Made by a program: the position numbers and the translations under genes
Assembly: GCA_028712095.1 (NCBI GenBank)
Contig: JAQTQU010000001.1
Coordinates: 1 to 60,563 of the forward strand
Direction: 5' to 3'
DNA from: Candidatus Peribacteraceae bacterium
Lineage (GTDB): Bacteria; Patescibacteriota; Gracilibacteria; Peribacterales; Peribacteraceae
DNA length: 60,563 nt
Notes under the pieces: model-generated
Told to the model about the DNA's origin: nothing
Seen by the model: only the letters and a program-made list of their open reading frames with translations
The model's database searches: none
In this document: positions 32,197-41,700 of the stretch, in pieces
Numbering within the stretch: the stretch's first letter is position 1
How the letters are laid out: every line of letters starts with the position of its first letter

Positions 32197-33609
32197 ATGA
32201 AGCCGCAACCGGCATGCTGCGCTATGCTCTTCATCATGTGCAGATGCCCCGATCGCAACGTTTGGGTGTCGGTTGTGCTCCTCTGGGGATTGCTGGCGCC
32301 TTGCGTACATGCGCTGACCGCCCCGCCCTTCCCCGACATGGAGACATCGTGGTACGGGTATCAGCAGAGTGTCGCGTACCTCAAAGACAAGGGCTCCATT
32401 GGCGGGTACCCAGACGGGCTCTTTCGTCCGCAGGCCACGATCAACCGCGCGGAGTTCCTCAAGCTCGTCTTCCGTTCCAAGGGAACAGTGCAGCCCGCCA
32501 CGCGTGACTGTTTCGCCGATGTGCCGTCTGATGCGTGGTTCGCGCCGTTCGTGTGTGCGGCCAAACAGCGTGGCATTATTCAGGGCTACAGCGTGGGCTC
32601 GCGCTCTGTCTTCAGGCCCGATCAGCCCATCATCTTTGCCGAGGCGATCAAGATGGCGGTGCTGTCGTACGGCAGCGAGATCGCCGAGGGCAGCGGAGAA
32701 CAGTGGTACCGGCCGTACGTGGAGGAGCTCGACCGGCAGAACATCCTCGCGCGCTCTTCGTACATTCCGTGGGCGCCCATCACGCGCGAGCGCGCGGCCG
32801 ATCTGATCGCCCGCTACGTGCGGCATGATGAAGACCGCGTCATTCCCAATCTCTCACCCGGCTGCGGCAAATCCGCCCTTAACCCTTCGCTCACGCTCAC
32901 CGTGGGCGGGCAGGAGAGAACGTACCTGCTCACGCGCCCCGCCTCTGCCGATGCCAATACGCCCTCGCCGCTGATCGTGGCGTTTCATGGTCGCACCAAC
33001 AGTAATGATCAGGTGCGTGCCTACTTCGGTCTGGACGATGCCGCGTCCGGATATTTCATCGCCTACCCGTCCGGTATTCCCACCGGCAACGGCAGTTACT
33101 CGTGGTCGGATCCCGGTGACAAGGCGCAGGAGCTGCGCGATTACGCGTTCTTCGACGCCCTGGTGCGCGAAATCGGCGAGAGCGTGTGCATCGACTTAGA
33201 CCGCATTTTCGTCGTCGGGCACTCACTGGGCGCGTGGTTTGCCAATTCGGTGGCATGTGCGCGCGGGGGCGTAGTGCGCGCGTCGGCAACCGTGGGCGGG
33301 TCCACGACCATGCAGGAATGCACAGGGCCGACCGCGGCCATGATCATCAATAATCCCAAAGACACGCTTTCGTCTGCGGTGACGGCCGAGTCGATGCGCG
33401 ATATCCGTATCAGCGCCAATACGTGTTCGACGAAGAGCTCAACAACGGAGCCTGCGGCGCTCTCGTGCGTGCAGTACGCCGATTGCCCGTTAAACCCCGT
33501 CGTCTTCTGCCCGCATACCATCAATCAGGATTACAAGGGTAATTACTATCCGCACGTGTGGCCCGATGGTACCGCGCAGGCGATGGTGAAGTTTTTCGGG
33601 GGGTTGTAG
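32197..33609 (+). CDS. secreted SLH-domain esterase (PHB-depolymerase / LpqC-like alpha/beta hydrolase)
   Basis: 470 aa. SLH repeats: FPDMETSWYGYQQSVAYLKDKGSIGGYPDGLFRP, FADVPSDAWFAPFVCAAKQRGIIQGY. Hydrolase part: PLIVAFHGRTNSN and the nucleophile elbow VVGHSLGAW. Confidence 0.8.
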   Translation: MKPQPACCAMLFIMCRCPDRNVWVSVVLLWGLLAPCVHALTAPPFPDMETSWYGYQQSVAYLKDKGSIGGYPDGLFRPQATINRAEFLKLVFRSKGTVQPATRDCFADVPSDAWFAPFVCAAKQRGIIQGYSVGSRSVFRPDQPIIFAEAIKMAVLSYGSEIAEGSGEQWYRPYVEELDRQNILARSSYIPWAPITRERAADLIARYVRHDEDRVIPNLSPGCGKSALNPSLTLTVGGQERTYLLTRPASADANTPSPLIVAFHGRTNSNDQVRAYFGLDDAASGYFIAYPSGIPTGNGSYSWSDPGDKAQELRDYAFFDALVREIGESVCIDLDRIFVVGHSLGAWFANSVACARGGVVRASATVGGSTTMQECTGPTAAMIINNPKDTLSSAVTAESMRDIRISANTCSTKSSTTEPAALSCVQYADCPLNPVVFCPHTINQDYKGNYYPHVWPDGTAQAMVKFFGGL

Positions 33610-33610
33610 G
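33557..33610 (+). repeat. direct repeat R1 (3' end of the esterase gene)
   Basis: TGTGGCCCGATGGTACCGCGCAGGCGATGGTGAAGTTTTTCGGGGGGTTGTAGG. It is repeated at 34504..34556 with 1 substitution plus a small indel. Confidence 0.9.
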
Positions 33611-33645
33611 GGAATTGACATCATTGTTCTACCCGTGTTTCCCTA

Positions 33646-33876
33646 TCAGATTTCTTTCAGGATTTTAAGGTATGTCTCGACAGAGATACCCAATGTCCGA
33701 AGATTCGAAGCGACGAGGCTCTTCTCAACCAGACCTCGCGCAGGGACGACAACCGGTCGTGTCAGTCCATTTTTCCAAAAAATCCGATGAGAACCTTTTT
33801 GCCGTGTAAAGTTACAGCCTATGTGATTTAAGAATCTTTCAAACGTTTGCCTCTTGATTGGTTTTAGGCCGGACAT
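33646..33876 (-). CDS. hicA: type II toxin HicA
   Basis: 76 aa. HicA/YcfA pattern: FERFLNHIGCNFTRQKGSHRIFWK...VVVP. Overlaps the upstream partner by 13 nt. Confidence 0.85.
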   Translation of the reverse strand: MSGLKPIKRQTFERFLNHIGCNFTRQKGSHRIFWKNGLTRPVVVPARGLVEKSLVASNLRTLGISVETYLKILKEI

Positions 33877-34286
33877 GACCTTCTGTTGTTCAGGGGGATA
33901 ACTGCCAGGGCTGTCAGCTCAATATCTTTTCCGATTCTCTCTGATTCAGGAAACTTGGAAAATGTTGGAGGTTGCATTTTTCCAGCCTGCTTATTCCACC
34001 CACACCGCAAAAGGTCTTTTTCCAAAGTTCCTTTTGTCATCGTTTCCTCGAGATAAATATCGAAAATATCCTCAAAGTTTTTTTGAACATCTTTTACGCT
34101 TTTTCCTTGTGCTGCCAAATCCAAAGCAGGTGCATAGGCAATATACGAACGACCTTCCTTAAAAATAGCGACATTCAAACTTCCGTTCACTTGAAAGTGC
34201 ACTTTTTGCCCATGCTTCTTTTCGATCTTCCGCATGTCTGTACTATAAGTACCCTGTTGCTTTTGGTAAAGCAGAGCCGTGCCCAT
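33864..34286 (-). CDS. hicB: HicB-like antitoxin
   Basis: UPF0150/HicB N-domain pattern: VAIFKEGRSYIAYAPALDLAAQGKSVKDVQKNFEDIFDIYLEE. Candidate starts are the ATGs at 34286 and 34235. The ORF-track start at 34382 runs into GC-rich non-cassette-like sequence. Confidence 0.65.
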   Translation of the reverse strand: MGTALLYQKQQGTYSTDMRKIEKKHGQKVHFQVNGSLNVAIFKEGRSYIAYAPALDLAAQGKSVKDVQKNFEDIFDIYLEETMTKGTLEKDLLRCGWNKQAGKMQPPTFSKFPESERIGKDIELTALAVIPLNNRRSCPA

Positions 34287-34503
34287 ATTGAATGATAGAA
34301 ACGGCTGCGGGCTTTCCTTTAGATCTATCCGCGGCCATTTCATTCTTCCCGCGGCCAGGAATGGTTCGGCTGCGCTCACCACAGGCGGCCGCGTCTATGT
34401 GTGATCAATATTGCCCCCCGCACCCCAGCAGCAGCCCTTTTTATGGTGAGCGAAGTCGAACCACGCGGCTGCGGCTTCCCGGGAAAACAGCGGTTTCCTC
34501 GTT

Positions 34504-34556
34504 TGTGGCCCGATGGTACCGCGCAGGCGATGGTGAGGTTTTTGAGGGGTTGTAGG
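34504..34556 (+). repeat. direct repeat R2 (displaced copy of the esterase 3' end)
   Basis: See the R1 entry. It would read WPDGTAQAMVRFLRGCRFDG* compared with WPDGTAQAMVKFFGGL* in the intact gene. Confidence 0.9.
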
Positions 34557-34577
34557 TTTGATGGGTAGGCGGAACAG

Positions 34578-35033
34578 TCATGCCAACTTTTTGGATAACC
34601 TACGAAGGATAGCAATCATTTTAGGCATATCAGCAGCTGGAACAAAAGGACACGATTGTCCCCACCACCATCTATTTTTTGGAGTCACAATGTAGTAACC
34701 AATGCGATATTCCACATCACCTATTTTTGCACCGCCACTGTGATGACTCTTACCACTTCTTTTGATCATACGTAGTTTTTCAATAACAAATGCTTTATTG
34801 CCGTTTAAGTTCTTCTGTTCAAAAATTTCCCAATCCTCACGCAAGTAATAGTGATATCCATCTCTGCCGATATCTTTGAATTCTAAAAGGTCTTTCTGTT
34901 TTTCCCCATTCATTAAATAGCGGCGTAAATCATCTTCAAACTGCATATTTTTCTTGGCTTTAAATTCTTTAAAAGTGAGGACATTTTGCATCTTTTGGAT
35001 TTCATATCCGTGACTTGTCTTTTGTTGAGGCAT
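34578..35033 (-). CDS. hypothetical protein (151 aa), third gene of the AT-rich operon
   Basis: Clean ORF with Lys/Glu-rich AT-type codon usage and a Trp-rich C-terminal motif (PKNRWWWGQSCPFVPAAD). No family recognised. Confidence 0.6.
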   Translation of the reverse strand: MPQQKTSHGYEIQKMQNVLTFKEFKAKKNMQFEDDLRRYLMNGEKQKDLLEFKDIGRDGYHYYLREDWEIFEQKNLNGNKAFVIEKLRMIKRSGKSHHSGGAKIGDVEYRIGYYIVTPKNRWWWGQSCPFVPAADMPKMIAILRRLSKKLA

Positions 35034-35050
35034 AAGAGGGATTTGGTTAA

Positions 35051-35776
35051 CTATTTAATGATGCCCGATAATGTCAGAAGTTCTTGTATTAATTTTCTTG
35101 CATCTTGTTTAGTGTCATCCAAATCTTGCTGCTGGGTGATATATACCCTGTCATGAGCTGCAGTATCACCTAGTTGTTTGATTGTTGATATTACTCTGGA
35201 AGATCCTCTGCCTAAGTGCATATCAGAACAGGAGGAAATTGCAGAGATCAATTTCTCTAATTCAATAAATTTCCCATTTGTTTTGATTTTATCAGCCATG
35301 TTTTTTTTAATGAAAGATTCAATTATCAAAGATTCCATCAATCTACGAAGTAAAACTGCGCAGCTATCAAAAAAACCATAATCGTATGATCCATTGATCT
35401 GGGCTACCATTTTTTCTATATAATGTCTTGTTCCTCTTGTGAGCTCGACGGGCAGAATCGAAGAAGTCACAGGAACTTTCTTCAGCTCAAGCAGAGGACC
35501 ATATGTTTTACTTAATTCATCAAGATGCTTAACATTTATCTGGAAAGTGCCCGACCGTTTCCCTTTTACTGTTTTTGGATCTTTTGTTAAGGCACGTTTC
35601 AACTCAGTTACATTGGGTTTTCCTAGGCCATCAGTCCTCAGATCATCAGCTAATTCAGAAGCCGATCGTTCTTCAAACGTTTGAGTTTCTCTGTAAAACC
35701 ATAGTAGAGCGATAGCTTGTCCTGCCCTGGTTAAATTCTGCATTGCCACTTTCTTAATAAAATTTTCACGATTCAT
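35051..35776 (-). CDS. winged-helix-like N-domain + DUF4145-like helical C-domain protein
   Basis: 241 aa. N-terminal: SASELADDLRTDGLGKPNVTELKRALTKDPKTVKGKRSGTFQI. C-terminal: CAVLLRRLMESLIIE...IKQLGDTAAHD, which resembles DUF4145 as I recall it. Confidence 0.6.
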   Translation of the reverse strand: MNRENFIKKVAMQNLTRAGQAIALLWFYRETQTFEERSASELADDLRTDGLGKPNVTELKRALTKDPKTVKGKRSGTFQINVKHLDELSKTYGPLLELKKVPVTSSILPVELTRGTRHYIEKMVAQINGSYDYGFFDSCAVLLRRLMESLIIESFIKKNMADKIKTNGKFIELEKLISAISSCSDMHLGRGSSRVISTIKQLGDTAAHDRVYITQQQDLDDTKQDARKLIQELLTLSGIIK

Positions 35777-35788
35777 ATAACAGCGGGA

Positions 35789-36313
35789 TTATTTGCCGCC
35801 ATTAATCACAGCGGTGAGGTAGGTCAATCCCTTTCTGGTTATGCGATATTTTACCGCTTGGCCTCTCTTTCTTACCTTATCACCCGCAACGTACGATTTT
35901 GCAGAACCTGCGATGCAATGAGCAACATTAGAAACGCTGACAGGTGTACCAAGTTCAGTAAGAATTTTAGAAATTTCGCCTGTTTGCAGAGCTATTTCGT
36001 TTCTAAAATGTTGATGACTAATATATAGAGGAAGCAAAATTCTATTTACTAGACTTAATCTATCGAGAATGGTTTGCTCGATTTTTTCTGATTCGTCACA
36101 TTCCTTTATGGTGTTGATCAGCTCTAGAACATGATCACCGTTCATCTCGCCCTTATCTGTTGATGGTTTGTGCGGCTTTGTAGATCCTCCAGCGCTTCTA
36201 GGAGATGCTTCTGACTTTACCGAATAGAGTTCAAGAATTTTTGCAATTTCATCTGGATTGCCCTCAATAATAATGTCGGTTCCATCGGGAAGTTTAATGT
36301 GGGATTTAGCCAT
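35789..36313 (-). CDS. hypothetical protein with C-terminal winged-helix-like module, first gene of the AT-rich operon
   Basis: 174 aa. C-terminal: LQTGEISKILTELGTPVSVSNVAHCIAGSAKSYVAGDKVRKRGQAVKYRITRKGLTYL. It resembles the N-domain of the next protein. Confidence 0.6.
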   Translation of the reverse strand: MAKSHIKLPDGTDIIIEGNPDEIAKILELYSVKSEASPRSAGGSTKPHKPSTDKGEMNGDHVLELINTIKECDESEKIEQTILDRLSLVNRILLPLYISHQHFRNEIALQTGEISKILTELGTPVSVSNVAHCIAGSAKSYVAGDKVRKRGQAVKYRITRKGLTYLTAVINGGK

Positions 36314-36396
36314 ACACTATTTATTGCCTATTTTACGTTTAAAGTAAAGATAAGTTGGCAGAACGGTCACATACACTTAATGGCTGGGGAGGATAG

Positions 36397-37842
36397 CTAC
36401 TTCCTCATAAGCACATCCGTGAGGGTCTTCTCGTAGAAATGCTTTTGATCGGCAATGGATTCTTTCTTTGTAACCCACTCTGTCCACCCGGAATCCGGAT
36501 GCGCGAGGCTCTGTTCTTTGCCCAGGTTCAAGACATCTGCCGAAAGCATGACCAGTTCATTCATGTCGAGACGCGAATCGGGGCGCAGGGCCAGCGCGCG
36601 ATTGGCGCGGAAGATCATCTGCTCCACCGGGAGCACGGTAGATACCGCGTACATCCAGACGAAGGCGACGACGAGATAGCGCACGATATCCGTTTTCTCT
36701 TTCTGGAATAACGCGGCAATCAGGCGGATGAAGAGAAAGACCGCAAAAATGACCGTGTACGCCGCGAAAAACTTCTCGTAACTGAAGCCGTAGTAGAACA
36801 CGTACATGCCCATGCGTTTCGCCGCGGAAAGGAGCAGCAACAGCGACGCAACCATGAACACGGTCAACATGTTCTGCACAGGTTTCGACGTGCGGCGGTA
36901 GTACAGCACATACAGGAGCACATTGATGCCGCTCAAAAAGAACAGCTGCCAAAAGCCGCTCTTGACGAGGTGTTCCGTCGCAGGAAATTCCGCAGGCAGC
37001 GTATACACCCAGAGCGTTTTGAGCTGCGTGAAGAGGAAAAGCACGTAGAGCACCAGAATGCCGCCGAGCACGATGCCCGATACCACGGCATCCATGTGTT
37101 TCGTTTCTGTCTGCGCGGCGGATTCCTCTTCTTTCGTCCACTGCAGTAAGCCCGCAAGCATCACGACGGTGAGCACGAGAAAGACCGCGATCTTGAGCAG
37201 CGTTTCCAATGCGACCAGATTGAGCACGAATTCCTGCGCGCTCTGCACCATTGCCGCGAATGCGGCATCGGCACCCGAGAGCAGGGGAATGAAGAGTACC
37301 AGTGACACGAAGACCAGAATCGCCAGACCGGTCACAATGCGCTTGATGAGGTCGGATTTCTGTTTCCCTCCCGGGATGAGCGCGTGTGCCATTGCCGCAA
37401 TAGCCGGTTCGATCTGCTGCACAACGCCGAGCGCGCGTTCCACCATCCTCCGGATCCACGCACTATTCCACACGACATTTTCGTGGTGCTTGGTAGAAGT
37501 AATAATGAAGTACGCAACGAAGAGCAGCGGAAGCACGAGCATGTTCACCGCCTTGATGAAGGGGTTCTCGTAGAGCGCGAAACTGAGCGCAATGAGCAGC
37601 AAGGGGACCAGCCACACGTATTCCCGTGCGCCTGGGCGCTGTGATCGTCCGGCGTGGGTGTAGAGACAGACGAGGGCAACAACGAACACCGTCAGGTTCC
37701 AGCCGAGTGCCGAGACCTCCTTCGTCCAGATGCCCCACAGGGTGAGCACCCAGTACAGAGAGAGGAGCATCGTTGCAAAAACGGCTGTGCGCTTCGTTAT
37801 GGTGAACATAGACCCGTATTCTAGCGCGGGGCGGTCAGGCAT
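36397..37842 (-). CDS. polytopic membrane protein (DUF4153/DUF4173-like)
   Basis: 481 aa with at least 10 hydrophobic segments. High GC like the host. The family assignment is from memory only. Confidence 0.65.
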   Translation of the reverse strand: MPDRPALEYGSMFTITKRTAVFATMLLSLYWVLTLWGIWTKEVSALGWNLTVFVVALVCLYTHAGRSQRPGAREYVWLVPLLLIALSFALYENPFIKAVNMLVLPLLFVAYFIITSTKHHENVVWNSAWIRRMVERALGVVQQIEPAIAAMAHALIPGGKQKSDLIKRIVTGLAILVFVSLVLFIPLLSGADAAFAAMVQSAQEFVLNLVALETLLKIAVFLVLTVVMLAGLLQWTKEEESAAQTETKHMDAVVSGIVLGGILVLYVLFLFTQLKTLWVYTLPAEFPATEHLVKSGFWQLFFLSGINVLLYVLYYRRTSKPVQNMLTVFMVASLLLLLSAAKRMGMYVFYYGFSYEKFFAAYTVIFAVFLFIRLIAALFQKEKTDIVRYLVVAFVWMYAVSTVLPVEQMIFRANRALALRPDSRLDMNELVMLSADVLNLGKEQSLAHPDSGWTEWVTKKESIADQKHFYEKTLTDVLMRK

Positions 37843-37879
37843 CCAAGAGGGCGAAATGTGTTCCTGCGAGGCCGCTGCT

Positions 37880-38260
37880 TCACACGTTTCGCAGTGGTCT
37901 TCGGCGACGACGCCTATTTGTGTGAAGCCTTTTCATTTGTAAGGCGGAGAGTGTTTTTCCTATAGCCGATTTCTTCTTCATTTGGTCTTTTGCGATCAAC
38001 CCCAAGAGCAATACTTCTCTGAGGTTGTCGCCCTTTCTGTTCCAACGGAGCCGATTGCAGTACACGCACGCAGGCAGGCAGTTATCCGCTTCTTTCTTGC
38101 CACCCTTCGCTCTCTGAATCACATGGTCGGCCTCCCAGGCTCCGTCCAGATCGTTGATATTCTTACATCCATACTTTTTCAGGATCAGAGAATCACCGCA
38201 GAAATGACAGTGGCCTTCTGTTTTCTGGAAGATGAGGGCAAGCGCATTACCCGTGAACAT
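37880..38260 (-). CDS. small HNH endonuclease
   Basis: 126 aa. HNH core: HCHFCGDSL...WEADHVIQRAKGG...NCLPACVYCNRLRWN. Confidence 0.8.
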   Translation of the reverse strand: MFTGNALALIFQKTEGHCHFCGDSLILKKYGCKNINDLDGAWEADHVIQRAKGGKKEADNCLPACVYCNRLRWNRKGDNLREVLLLGLIAKDQMKKKSAIGKTLSALQMKRLHTNRRRRRRPLRNV

Positions 38261-38526
38261 GTGATGGATTGTAGCCGGATGAAACCTATGGGTCTATTTC
38301 AAGAGAGATCAGGATTGGGATTACGGTCTCGTACTCCTGTTTGTCGCATTCTATTGAATGACGAAGAAGGTGATTTGTCTGTACGATTGAGGATCCTGTG
38401 CTATCTTTTCCACGCATTGGGGAGCCCACCTTCGCCCGCTCTCGCGGGACTTCCCCCTTCGCCCTTACGGGCTACGGGGGACAAGTCGGCGGGCGAGAGC
38501 CCATTCCTGCTATCATCGTTTCACGT

Positions 38527-38601
38527 TGGGGAGTCGCCAAGTGGTAAGGCACCTGCCTCTGGAGCAGGCATTCGGGGGTTCGAATCCCTCCTCCCCAGCC
38601 A
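38527..38601 (+). tRNA. tRNA-Gln (anticodon CUG), CCA encoded
   Basis: TGGGGAGTCGCCAAGTGGTAAGGCACCTGCCTCTGGAGCAGGCATTCGGGGGTTCGAATCCCTCCTCCCCAGCCA. It has the U1-A72 pair and overall pattern of bacterial tRNA-Gln. Anticodon loop CTCTGGA. Confidence 0.92.
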
Positions 38602-38629
38602 CGTCAGCTTAAGCTGACGTGGCCAGCCA
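38593..38629 (+). repeat. 37-bp direct repeat DR1 (last 9 nt of tRNA-Gln plus hairpin)
   Basis: CCCCAGCCACGTCAGCTTAAGCTGACGTGGCCAGCCA, identical to 43619..43655. It contains the 22-nt palindrome CACGTCAGCTTAAGCTGACGTG. Confidence 0.95.
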
Positions 38630-38783
38630 ACACCTGCACGCGACCGTTCTGCCTATACGCTACAAATTCTTCATCGTATCCAGGTTCGAATCCCGTCTCA
38701 CTTGGGTACATTTCCCTTCTGCCTGGTCGACCAAATGCCATAAAACTCTCCGTCGAAACCTCTCGCGACTTTCCTCAAGAAGA

Positions 38784-41700
38784 TCAACGTCCCATCACTT
38801 CCTTCACGAGTGCGATAATCTTGGCCACCTCCGCGCGGGTGATGGGAGCATCGGGGCGGAACGTGTTCAGGGGATTTCCTTGGTCGTCCGTATCTCCGCC
38901 AATGAGCCCGTAGAAGGCGGCTGTCGCAATAGCCTTGGCGTAGGGATGGTCCGGGGGGAAATCGGAGAACGCGGAAGATTGATTGGCGATGGGAATGCCC
39001 ATCGTCTCCAGGATCGTCTGGATCACCGCTCCGCGCGTGGCTGGTTGCCGTACATCGAGCGAAGGGGTGAACACCGAGAGGTTCATAGCTTCGGCCTGCG
39101 CCACGTAGCTCGATGCCCACGTACCCTGCGCCGATGCATTGCGCGGAGGCGGCAGGTTTCCCGCGCTCTTTCCGGCGACATTCAGCGCCATCTTCAGCAC
39201 TTCGGCGTACGTCACGGGATTGCCCACGCCGAATTCCCCCTTGGGTTTGCCTGTTGCATCCGCGTAGCCTGTGGCGATCTTCTCTTCCACCATGAATGAA
39301 ACGTACGGCGCGAACCACGCCGAGAGGGGGACATCCGCGAAGAGCACGGGGACTTCATCCACGGCAGCGTAGAGCCTGCCGCGCCGCTCCGCGACGAGCT
39401 TCAGTGAGGTGGCAGCGCCCTTCAGGTTGCCACGGGAATCCAGCCGATCACGCAGAGCGAGACGTTCCCCGCGGCGCTCGGCATTCGTCTCCTGCTCCGC
39501 CTTCAGCGTTTCCTGCTCGGCCGATAAGGCGGCTTGGGCCTCGGCGAGATGCTTCTCCTCGAGGGCGATGGCCAGTGCCATCCGCTCTTCGCGGTGCAGG
39601 GCGAATTTCTTCTCGAATTCCGCCTTCGTCTGCTCGATCCGCGCAATTTCTGCTTCGTGTTCCGCAATCCGCGCGGCGATGCGCGCTTCGCGCTCAGCAG
39701 CCCCTTTCTCATCCCACTGCGATCGCTCGATCTCCTTCACTGTTGCCGCGATCACGGCGTTCTCCTGCCGCTTCCCCTCGAACCGCGCCATCAGAGCCTG
39801 TCGCGCCGCTTCGATCCTGCCAGTCATGTCCTCCTGACTCCCCCGTCTCCCTCCGGCGCTCTGGGTCGTACTCGCGGAGGCGCTGTCATCCCCGGTATTT
39901 TCCTCCTCCCCGAAGAGCCCGAAGGTGGAGAAGGCGGTCGTCGTGCACGATACCGTGTTGGCGCTCGTATCCACCGTGCAATCGCTCAGCTCGTTCCAGC
40001 TGCTCCCGTCCCAGCGGTAGATCTGGAGTGTCGCTTCGGCGTACCCGCTCACTTGCGCATCGGTGTACTCCATCTCCACTGCAATGGGTTGCAGGAAGCT
40101 CGTCACGAGTGTTGCCCCGCTGATCGCACGCAGGTCGTACATATGGTCTCCGATGACGGAGACGCCCGAAGGAGTGGACGTGACGGCGATGACCGTGTCC
40201 TTATCGAGTTTCTTGATCTGCAGCGCGATCGTATTCGTCGCCGCGTCGGCGGGGACGGTCAGCGCGGTGCCGGAACCCCCGCTCGTCATCGCGAGACTGC
40301 CCCCGGCGGTGGTGATGCTGCTCCCCGTCTGCGAACTCACGGTCGCGTCATTCGTGCAGCCGGTGGTGGTGAAGGTCGCGAGCGAACCCGTGGCGGTGTT
40401 GGCCGAAGGATCGCGGGAGACAGGGCGGAAGTGGTAGGTGGTGCAGGCGGGGAGGTCAGAGAGCGCCACCTCATGCGCCGTGACGCCGGCCCCGGTATCC
40501 GCCTCCTTCGTCGCCGTCCCCAATGCGGAGGTGAGACCGTAGTGGAGCCGGGTGCTGGCATTCTCGTCGGTTTCCCAGGTGATCGTGGCGGTGGATGACG
40601 TGACGGAGGCGGAAGCGGCGGCGGTGAAGGCGGGAGCCTCCCCCACCGTCGTGAAGCTCCAGTAGGTCGTGGAGGACTGGACTGCTGTATGGTTCCTGTT
40701 CACGGACGCGTCCTTGAAGGCGTTCGCCTCCCACACGACGTAGTATCCGGTGCTCTCGTCGAGGGTCGTTGCGGGATTGAACGTGAGCGAAGCGGAACCG
40801 TTCCCCGAGAGCAGCGCGCCCGACACCGTGATCGCCTCCACCGTGGCGTCATTGCTCGTCTTCTTGATGGTGAGGACGCCCGTTCCCGCCCGGGCGGTTT
40901 CATCGAACGTGAGAACGAGGTTGGCCGTCCAAGAGACATCCGTCGCGTTATCGGCGGGGGAGAGCGCGGAGACGCCCGGTGCGGTGAAATCCCCGGTCGT
41001 GAAGCTCCAATAGGTCGTGGACGCCTGTATGGCGGTGTGGCGGCCCCCGGCACTCTTGAAGGCATTCGCCTCCCACACGACGTAGTATTCCGTACTCTCA
41101 TTGAGCGTCGTTGCCGGATTAAACGTGAGTTCCGTCGTGCCGTTGCCCGAGAGGAGCGCCCCCGAAACGGTGATCGTTTCCACGGTGGCATTGTTGCTCG
41201 TCTTCTTGATCGTGAGCGTTCCCGTGCCGGCGCGCGCCACCTTGTCGAACGTGATCACGAGGTTGGACAGCGTGGAGACGTTCGTCGCGTCATCCGCCGG
41301 AGAGAGGGTGGAGACGGAGGGGGATGAAGTGGCAAGGGTGTACGCGAGAGCCTCGTTGGTGGCCGCCGTATCCTTGTTTCCGGCCGTGTCCATGCAGGCG
41401 ACGTACACGGTCTTCGCGCCGTCTTCGCCGAGGTCGGCGAGCGTGCAGGAGATCGATTGGGTACCGCTCCCCGAGCAGGCCGTGTCGTCGGACATCTCGT
41501 CGTAGGTCTCATCCCCGTCCGTCGAGGCCCGGCAGTTCCCATTCTCATTGAGCGAGAAGGTGACGGTGGGAGTGGCGTCATCGATCGTTTCCCCCGAAGC
41601 CGGCGAGAAGCCGGAGGGAGCGGGAACGGCGGTATCAACGGTGAAGGAATCGCTGCCGTACGCTCCTTCCGGAGTGTAGACGGTGCTGTTGTCGCGCCCT

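Follow-up and report, generated by a model that had tools for sequence, protein, structure and literature searches.

A mobile gene pair around a divergent DUF4145-class HEPN protein, a candidate toxin–antitoxin or abortive-infection module, in an AT-rich block of a Candidatus Peribacteraceae genome

The AT-rich block and its boundaries

The window analysed here is a stretch of 60,563 nucleotides of contig JAQTQU010000001.1 (assembly GCA_028712095.1), from a metagenome-assembled genome (MAG) of Candidatus Peribacteraceae in the Peregrinibacteria of the candidate phyla radiation (CPR). Within it lies a short block of AT-rich DNA holding three genes, here called pA, pB and pC (Table 1). The first two, pA and pB, recur together in other genomes and are our main subject; the third belongs to a separate family.

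An initial annotation, made from the sequence letters and a list of open reading frames (ORFs), had proposed three co-directional, tightly spaced ORFs at this place, an AT-rich composition between GC-rich flanks and a duplicated host-gene 3′ end, and all three claims hold. The ORFs match exactly on the minus strand, with gaps in the ORF list of 12 nt between pA and pB and 17 nt between pB and pC. GC content is 0.34–0.42 over positions 34650–36300 and 0.55–0.68 in both flanks; the pA–pB pair has 38.6% GC, compared with 59.0% for the remainder of the window. The peptide motifs that had been quoted are present. All three ORFs are genuine genes, each with homologs: 524 for pB, more than 30 loci for pA and 144 cluster representatives for pC.

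Duplicated host sequence is found on both sides of the block. On the left, the 3′ end of an SLH/hydrolase gene occurs as a direct repeat, whose original (33557–33612) and second copy (34504–34557) are ~94% identical with a 31-nt exact core; two such matches arose in no shuffled sequence. These copies flank a ~0.9-kb HicA cassette, and the second stops exactly at the start of the AT-rich block. On the right, part of the end of a tRNA-Gln gene, itself 2.2 kb away, recurs in inverted orientation within the 83-nt spacer that precedes pA. The last 12 nt of the tRNA (CCTCCCCAGCCA) occur at 38590–38601 (+) and 36381–36392 (−), and a 12-mer of its downstream flank (GACCGTTCTGCC) at 38642–38653 (+) and 36357–36368 (−), each exactly twice in the window where 0.01–0.04 would be expected. 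Host sequence duplicated at both ends, including a tRNA 3′ end, is the usual signature of an acquired island. Because the block is delimited in this way on both sides, we conclude, on sequence grounds, that it is a horizontally acquired insert of ~1.8 kb; the earlier suggestion of foreign AT-rich DNA in a toxin- or defence-type neighbourhood is supported.

The SLH/hydrolase repeat around the HicA cassette resembles the att sites of a decayed integrative element, and the inverted tRNA-Gln copies suggest an earlier inversion, or integration at the tRNA. No integrase is present near the SLH/hydrolase repeat or the AT-rich block of the window. Other public contigs with these proteins come from the same organism (99.98–100% identity), and two of them terminate at the SLH/hydrolase repeat; a search for an island-free version of this genome found none, the contigs with these proteins all being from that organism. 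An Rfam scan of 33000–39500 returned no structured RNA except tRNA, and a promoter and terminator scan of 33400–38700 gave the same counts as shuffled sequence. No terminator-like site lies between the three block genes.

Two further observations concern the tRNA-Gln region. The inverted copies (36357–36392, −; 38590–38653, +) bracket a 2.2-kb segment with a DUF4153 membrane protein gene, an HNH gene and tRNA-Gln itself. In addition, positions 38683–38699 hold a second string resembling a TΨC arm (GGTTCGAATCCCGTCTC), 106 nt past its counterpart in tRNA-Gln. Neither ARAGORN nor Rfam calls a tRNA there, and the string may be a remnant of one.

Table 1 Coordinates of the block genes, their boundaries and adjoining features in the window
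Feature	Position	Strand	Description
pA	35789..36313	−	174-aa ORF; PHX93_00150; first gene of the conserved pair
pB	35051..35776	−	241-aa ORF; PHX93_00145; second gene of the pair, proposed effector
HEPN signature codons of pB	35153..35179	−	K200-x2-G203-D204-x-A206-A207-H208; invariant in the family alignment
pC	34578..35033	−	151-aa ORF; PHX93_00140; third gene of the block
Left boundary of the block	34504..34557	+	Duplicate of the final ~54 nt of the SLH/hydrolase gene, the original of which is at 33557–33612
Right boundary of the block	36357..36392	−	Inverted partial copy of the tRNA-Gln 3′ end (CCTCCCCAGCCA) and downstream flank (GACCGTTCTGCC)
HicA toxin gene	33646..33876	−	Pfam HicA_toxin 9.4e-9; PHROG toxin 2.6e-6; context only, outside the module
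ORF at the HicB position	33864..34286	−	140 aa as called in the public record; overlaps HicA by 13 nt
HNH endonuclease gene	37880..38260	−	126 aa; small, stand-alone

The pA–pB pair and its predicted proteins

The genomic context of pB was collected by exact look-up and by a two-peptide-pattern scan of 185,579 species genomes, which yielded 34 loci; the distribution given here is accordingly a lower bound. Of the 32 non-redundant loci for which a full-length pB and its upstream DNA were available, 31 have a pA homolog as the next gene upstream in the same orientation, overlapping pB by a few bases or separated from it by at most 12 nt. The pair thus has the form expected of a toxin–antitoxin (TA) system: two small, adjacent, co-directional genes, close or overlapping and co-inherited. 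In the one exception (L037), the upstream gene encodes a different protein of 187 residues, with a similar basic linker and a C-terminus that looks winged-helix-like by eye. Pairwise identities of pA and pB correlate across loci (r = 0.70, a value reached in none of 2000 permutations), and pA diverges faster than pB, with a mean identity of 43% compared with 50%. Antitoxins usually evolve faster than toxins.

The hosts are Saccharibacteria, Paceibacterota, Parcubacteria, Alpha-, Beta-, Gamma- and Deltaproteobacteria, Planctomycetota, Chloroflexota, Sumerlaeota, Ignavibacteriae, Terriglobia, Eisenbacteria, Binataceae and Candidatus Manganitrophus. All 34 loci are in MAGs; the scan of species representatives found pB in no cultured isolate. 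In 28 of 30 loci the pair has a lower GC content than the remainder of its locus, by 9.6 GC points on average, and a tRNA lies within 2.3 kb of it in eight of the 30. Beyond pA and pB, no gene family recurs as a conserved neighbour in these loci, and pB has no match in BFVD. From the pairing, the gene coupling and the correlated divergence we conclude that pA and pB form a strict pair, and from its AT-rich composition, the nearby tRNAs and the duplicated host sequence at the block in the window that this pair is horizontally mobile.

Individual loci provide some further detail. In L003 (250–5848), the pair and a few other genes are inserted between tuf (EF-Tu) and rpsJ (S10), among the most conserved of bacterial gene neighbourhoods. 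At the locus of the closest pB homolog, a fragment resembling a tRNA 3′ end (TTCGAATCCCTACTCGGCAGCCA; L001:5367–5466) lies just upstream of pA; ARAGORN reports no complete tRNA within 6 kb of the pair at this locus, which may be a second case of the pair beside an att-like tRNA remnant. Extra pA-like paralogs lie beside the pair at L020:8845–9249, L031:7059–7478 and L035:4164–4844. At three other loci (L040:7118–8420, L041:7306–8471 and L042:4146–5425) we found a pB homolog that consists of the HEPN domain only, with the sequence KxxGDxSAH, and directly upstream of it a DUF5343 protein (Pfam matches up to 1.9e-41) with a conserved C-terminal motif, LHIDIQIHIS...QIDxIFxSMAKHLY. A likeness between this motif and the N-terminal motif of pA was considered and rejected (hhalign E = 0.058, probability 0.9%, not significant). 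No paper in the literature searched mentions DUF5343.

The homologs of pB (E ≤ 1e-3) are nearly all 238–259 residues long. In the AlphaFold2 (AF2) model of pB, which has a predicted local distance difference test score (pLDDT) of 93.9, an N-terminal winged helix (residues ~17–96) is followed by a C-terminal helical HEPN domain (~118–236). Foldseek matches the N-terminal half to forkhead, MarR and SarA proteins and the C-terminal half best to PDB entry 2hsb (template modelling (TM) score 0.78, root-mean-square deviation 2.1 Å, 120 columns), as well as to 2q00 (TM 0.75) and to HepT toxins; model and structural matches together predict an all-helical HEPN core fold. The resemblance of this C-terminus to DUF4145, proposed initially, is measurable in the sequence. 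The match to Pfam DUF4145 (PF13643) itself is below threshold (E = 6.5e-4; 20.2 bits, cut-off 23.1), many pB homologs carry a precomputed PF13643 match, and two are named DUF4145 domain-containing by NCBI. DUF4145 has been described as a divergent HEPN clade (PMC3710099). A pB profile detected no match to any chain among the PDB sequences.

The HEPN signature of the family is KxxGDx[AS][AS]H, present in 119 of 120 family members and kept also in the three HEPN-only variants; none has arginine at the lysine position. The spacing between K200 and H208 of pB, seven residues, is that between the catalytic residues R146 and H154 of the defence protein RAZR (PMC13017515), with lysine in place of arginine. 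Invariant across the pB alignment are H208, D204 and K200 and, from an RRLME motif, R144, R145 and E148. Judged from this conservation, the six residues look like a candidate active site and unlike a mere interface.

The AF2 model of pA has a pLDDT of 77, falling below 50 over residues 33–57. Three parts can be distinguished: a β-hairpin and helix (residues 1–31, nt 36221–36313), whose motif MAKAxxKLPNGTxVxIEGTxEEV is found in all homologs; a disordered linker rich in lysine and serine (~32–58); and a MarR/PadR-like winged helix (~59–170), matched by Foldseek to MarR, MepR and PadR at probability 1.0 and E-values of 2e-3 to 2e-2. Sequence searches assigned pA to no Pfam or PDB family, and the top PDB match of its profile was a low-complexity one, to a designed repeat protein. 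Because it would combine a DNA-binding domain, a disordered region and a short structured peptide, pA has the predicted layout of a classic antitoxin. The initial annotation had described similar winged-helix modules in pA and pB. A winged helix is indeed predicted in both by AF2 and Foldseek; at the sequence level the two show no significant similarity (hhalign probability 0.4%).

Proposed mechanism, alternatives and neighbouring genes

Since the upstream gene of the pair is the faster-evolving one, is coupled to the next, and encodes a DNA-binding domain with a flexible peptide, and since the downstream gene encodes a nuclease-type domain, the architecture is that of a type II-like TA or abortive-infection system. 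With middling confidence, we propose that pA–pB is a mobile two-gene module of this kind, built around a divergent DUF4145-class HEPN domain, in which pA would restrain pB. In this module pB would be the effector: its HEPN domain would dimerise and cut RNA, and its winged helix would anchor the protein to nucleic acid or direct it there. As the product of a translationally coupled upstream gene, pA would be made first and would act as both restraining and regulating partner. Its MarR-like winged helix may bind DNA, either the promoter of its own operon or another nucleic-acid ligand, and we infer that its N-terminal β-hairpin and helix reaches pB by way of the long disordered linker, binds it and holds the HEPN site shut. 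Loss, degradation or displacement of pA, for example on phage infection or loss of the island, would then free the putative RNase.

Genes adjoining the pair, HicA in the window among them, lend moderate support, by their family assignments, to a role in defence. The pair adjoins a BfiI-type restriction endonuclease and two methyltransferases in L002, methyltransferases in L011, L032 and L036, a HEPN_Cthe2314-like gene in L001, and MqsA and DUF4160/DUF2442 in L006; in L012, an Mrr gene lies 42 nt downstream.

Several results weigh on the other side. Most neighbours of the pair are housekeeping genes, and DNA methyltransferases make up five of 150 neighbouring ORFs. Plasmids and phages often carry addiction modules, and pB was found in none of 72,556 plasmid records, in none of 50,697 phage records and nowhere in IMG/VR. 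A toxin with a DNA-binding domain of its own is unusual for a type II TA system, and upstream of pA in 31 loci we found no conserved operator, AT-rich k-mers alone being enriched; a 5-bp inverted repeat upstream of pA in the window (TTTAC-N7-GTAAA) is too short to carry weight. The Foldseek E-values of the HEPN half of pB are weak (0.2 or worse), with good TM scores. In 119 of 120 members the arginine of the HEPN dyad is replaced by lysine, so that the canonical Arg...His dyad (Rx4-6H) is lacking and catalysis by pB is not assured; the histidine is invariant. Finally, comparison of the three proteins with PADLOC-DB v2.0.0 gave no convincing match, the best being AbiJ for pB (E = 0.009) and NDT_II-A for pA (E = 0.014), with none for pC, and scans of NCBIfam and PHROG returned nothing significant for any of the three. 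As the initial annotation had anticipated, no named defence system in PADLOC matches.

We would tentatively go further than the two-gene TA or abortive-infection module set out above. It is possible that pA–pB is an unnamed immune module, found so far in uncultured bacteria only, in which a DUF4145 HEPN RNase with the lysine variant and a winged helix of its own is held inactive by the tethered β-hairpin peptide of a MarR-like partner, and is freed by a phage-induced change in pA or in the bound nucleic acid. Its control would then be of the kind seen in type IX retrons, in the absence of a retron, and the pairs of DUF5343 and HEPN-only proteins would represent a second architecture.

A related alternative, which we think rather unlikely, is that pA–pB is a nucleic-acid-sensing abortive-infection complex. 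Here a DNA or RNA ligand would be bound by both winged helices, and the HEPN RNase would be freed when a phage nuclease or other phage protein disturbs the assembly, much as in the HEPN and winged-helix pair of type IX retrons with the retron itself removed. The two-part logic is that of Retron-Kva2, in which a winged-helix protein with N-terminal HEPN-binding modules and a C-terminal helix-turn-helix (HTH) surrounds a HEPN dimer, and 2hsb is the best structural template for the retron HEPN and pB alike. The restriction-modification (R-M) genes that adjoin the pair in several loci and its absence from the phages searched agree with such a role. Against it, neither a reverse transcriptase, at which no search was aimed, nor any other conserved third gene was seen beside the pair in 30 loci, and 33000–39500 holds no structured RNA other than tRNA; the gene order is opposite to that of type IX retrons, whose proteins were compared by description and not by sequence.

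It is less probable still that both proteins regulate transcription, with a non-catalytic HEPN domain in pB that serves for dimerisation or ligand binding, like other HEPN domains without the catalytic dyad. The DNA-binding winged helices predicted in both proteins would suit regulators, as would the mostly housekeeping neighbours. Of 120 members, 119 lack the canonical arginine, as do some DUF4145-like clades listed in a survey of HEPN domains (PMC3710099). Against this reading, we observed neither a conserved neighbouring target gene nor a conserved operator. The patchy, AT-rich distribution over unrelated phyla, linked to horizontal gene transfer, is atypical of a regulator that carries no cargo, and the invariance of H208, D204, K200, R144, R145 and E148 is more like that of an active site.

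The view that all three genes form one defence or addiction system in which pC is required, suggested here by their common strand, low GC content, short gaps (12 and 17 nt) with no terminator-like site between them and position in one repeat-bounded insert, and by a pC-family member fused to HEPN_AbiV which implies that the domain can work alongside HEPN, is very improbable and largely refuted by co-occurrence, since pC homologs are found in none of 30 other pA–pB loci, pA or pB in none of 80 pC-family loci, and at L008, whose pC homolog (68% identical) is the closest that has flanking DNA, the 58 nt of preceding sequence encode no pB C-terminus. The three-gene unit of the initial annotation thus stood for pA and pB, which co-occur in 31 of 32 loci, and failed for the third gene only.

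What lies downstream of the pair in those 30 loci is a different gene every time. The pC family itself comprises 144 cluster representatives (full HMMER search, E ≤ 1e-3), mostly 110–150 residues long, with the motifs KDIGR, KVFVxERLR, EYRIGY and WxWGQxCPxIP. It had been described as a protein of no recognisable family, and so it proved: pC matches no Pfam, NCBIfam, PHROG or PADLOC family, its core domain has no Pfam, PHROG or PDB match, and the family has no match in IMG/VR. The 80 pC-family loci are metagenomic, with a median GC content of 37%. Recurrent neighbours there are Eco57I-type and N6 methyltransferases, N6_N4 methyltransferases and type I HsdR, together with PD-(D/E)XK nucleases, NUDIX proteins, integrases and RhuM, and an R-M gene lies within 4 kb of the pC homolog in 16 of the 45 loci that span at least 4 kb. 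From this distribution we conclude that pC is a hitchhiker from a separate, uncharacterised family associated with R-M islands and is not needed by the pA–pB module; here, pC and the pair probably share a transcript.

Within the pC family, a tightly spaced order of PD-(D/E)XK nuclease, pC homolog and NUDIX hydrolase occurs in L088, L111–L113 and L122, with the NUDIX side only in L090 and the PD-(D/E)XK side only in L125. Four of these loci (L111, L112, L113 and L122) are near-identical, so that few independent lineages stand behind the order. Fusions of the pC domain, one member each, join it to HEPN_AbiV (P0159, 8.9e-27) and to a GGACT/AIG2 γ-glutamyl cyclotransferase (P0160), and in P0173 it follows an integrase fragment; these fusions hint at a role in conflict systems for this unnamed domain.

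Two neighbours in the window deserve mention. A HicAB cassette had been annotated beside the block. HicA was confirmed by its Pfam match, and the ORF at the HicB position has no match to Pfam, NCBIfam or PADLOC at E ≤ 1; because this overlapping upstream ORF lacks a family match, the label HicAB rests on HicA and gene position only. The small HNH endonuclease (Pfam HNH 1.3e-7; PADLOC REase_II and mREase_IV, 1e-7 to 1e-6) is encoded in lower-GC DNA beside tRNA-Gln and is a probable further mobile or defence gene of this neighbourhood.

Comparison with known systems

HEPN RNases are central effectors in CRISPR, TA and abortive-infection systems. For those of the DUF4145 type, a role in defence was demonstrated only recently, in RAZR, BxaP and Ishtar1, and pA–pB would add to them a two-component version with a new control partner. 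It would also add a conserved variant of the active site, with lysine for arginine, which bears on how much change HEPN catalysis tolerates, and a module so far seen in MAGs only, including those of CPR bacteria, a group in which little is known of defence systems. Our analysis also distinguishes pC as a further uncharacterised family, one that follows R-M islands in groundwater genomes of low GC content. Both the pair and pC are small, easily cloned and directly testable.

DUF4145-HEPN proteins have been validated experimentally as RNases or defence effectors in three cases: RAZR/PD-T7-4 (PMC13017515), BxaP (PMC10799925) and Ishtar1 (bioRxiv 10.64898/2026.07.06.735840). RAZR/PD-T7-4 shares with pB a C-terminal DUF4145-class HEPN domain, a basic residue separated by seven others from the catalytic histidine that follows it, a small N-terminal module of nucleic-acid or zinc type, and the logic of abortive infection. 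It differs in being a single gene with a Cys4 zinc ribbon and an R...H dyad, whereas pB has a winged helix, lysine for arginine and an obligate partner gene; the combination that marks RAZR, an N-terminal Cys4 zinc ribbon with DUF4145 in a single gene, is not found in pB. BxaP and Ishtar1 likewise use a DUF4145-type HEPN as effector domain, against phages or plasmids, but are single proteins, with a HEAT-like domain in BxaP and a β-rich C-terminal domain in Ishtar1, and have no partner like pA. The literature searched describes single-gene DUF4145 defence proteins only, and no pair of a winged-helix–HEPN protein and its partner.

Among two-gene systems, the type VII TA system HepT–MntA (HEPN/MNT) has a HEPN toxin neutralised by the product of the adjacent gene, and HepT structures (5yep, 6m6w and 7bxo) are among the matches of pB. 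The partner in that system is a nucleotidyltransferase and pA is a winged-helix protein, so neutralisation by AMPylation is not expected for pA–pB. In the DUF5343 pairs described above (L040–L042), the HEPN domain is homologous to that of pB, keeps its signature, and has its partner directly upstream; the HEPN protein lacks a winged helix, and the conserved strand–helix motif of the partner is C-terminal and not N-terminal as in pA.

The closest mechanistic precedent, by analogy, appears to be the effector pair of type IX retrons, in which a non-canonical HEPN nuclease has its active site blocked by a winged-helix protein wrapped around it (bioRxiv 10.64898/2026.07.14.738597). As in pA–pB, two overlapping genes encode a HEPN and a winged-helix protein, and the HEPN domain lacks a canonical Rx4-6H and has 2hsb as its template (PMC7736814; bioRxiv 10.64898/2026.07.14.738597). 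The retron winged-helix protein binds HEPN through its N-terminal parts and ends in an HTH, the layout that we propose for pA. Type IX retrons differ, in a comparison made by description, in their reverse transcriptase and msr/msd, their reversed gene order and their two αββαβ domains, where pA has one 30-residue β-hairpin and helix and pB has its own winged helix. By the pA–pB pair there is no third family conserved in 30 loci and no Rfam match other than tRNA, though no search was aimed at a reverse transcriptase; its neighbours in the window are the DUF4153 and HNH genes. Taken with these precedents, pA–pB is best placed as a HEPN-based TA or defence module, and is not a categorically new system.

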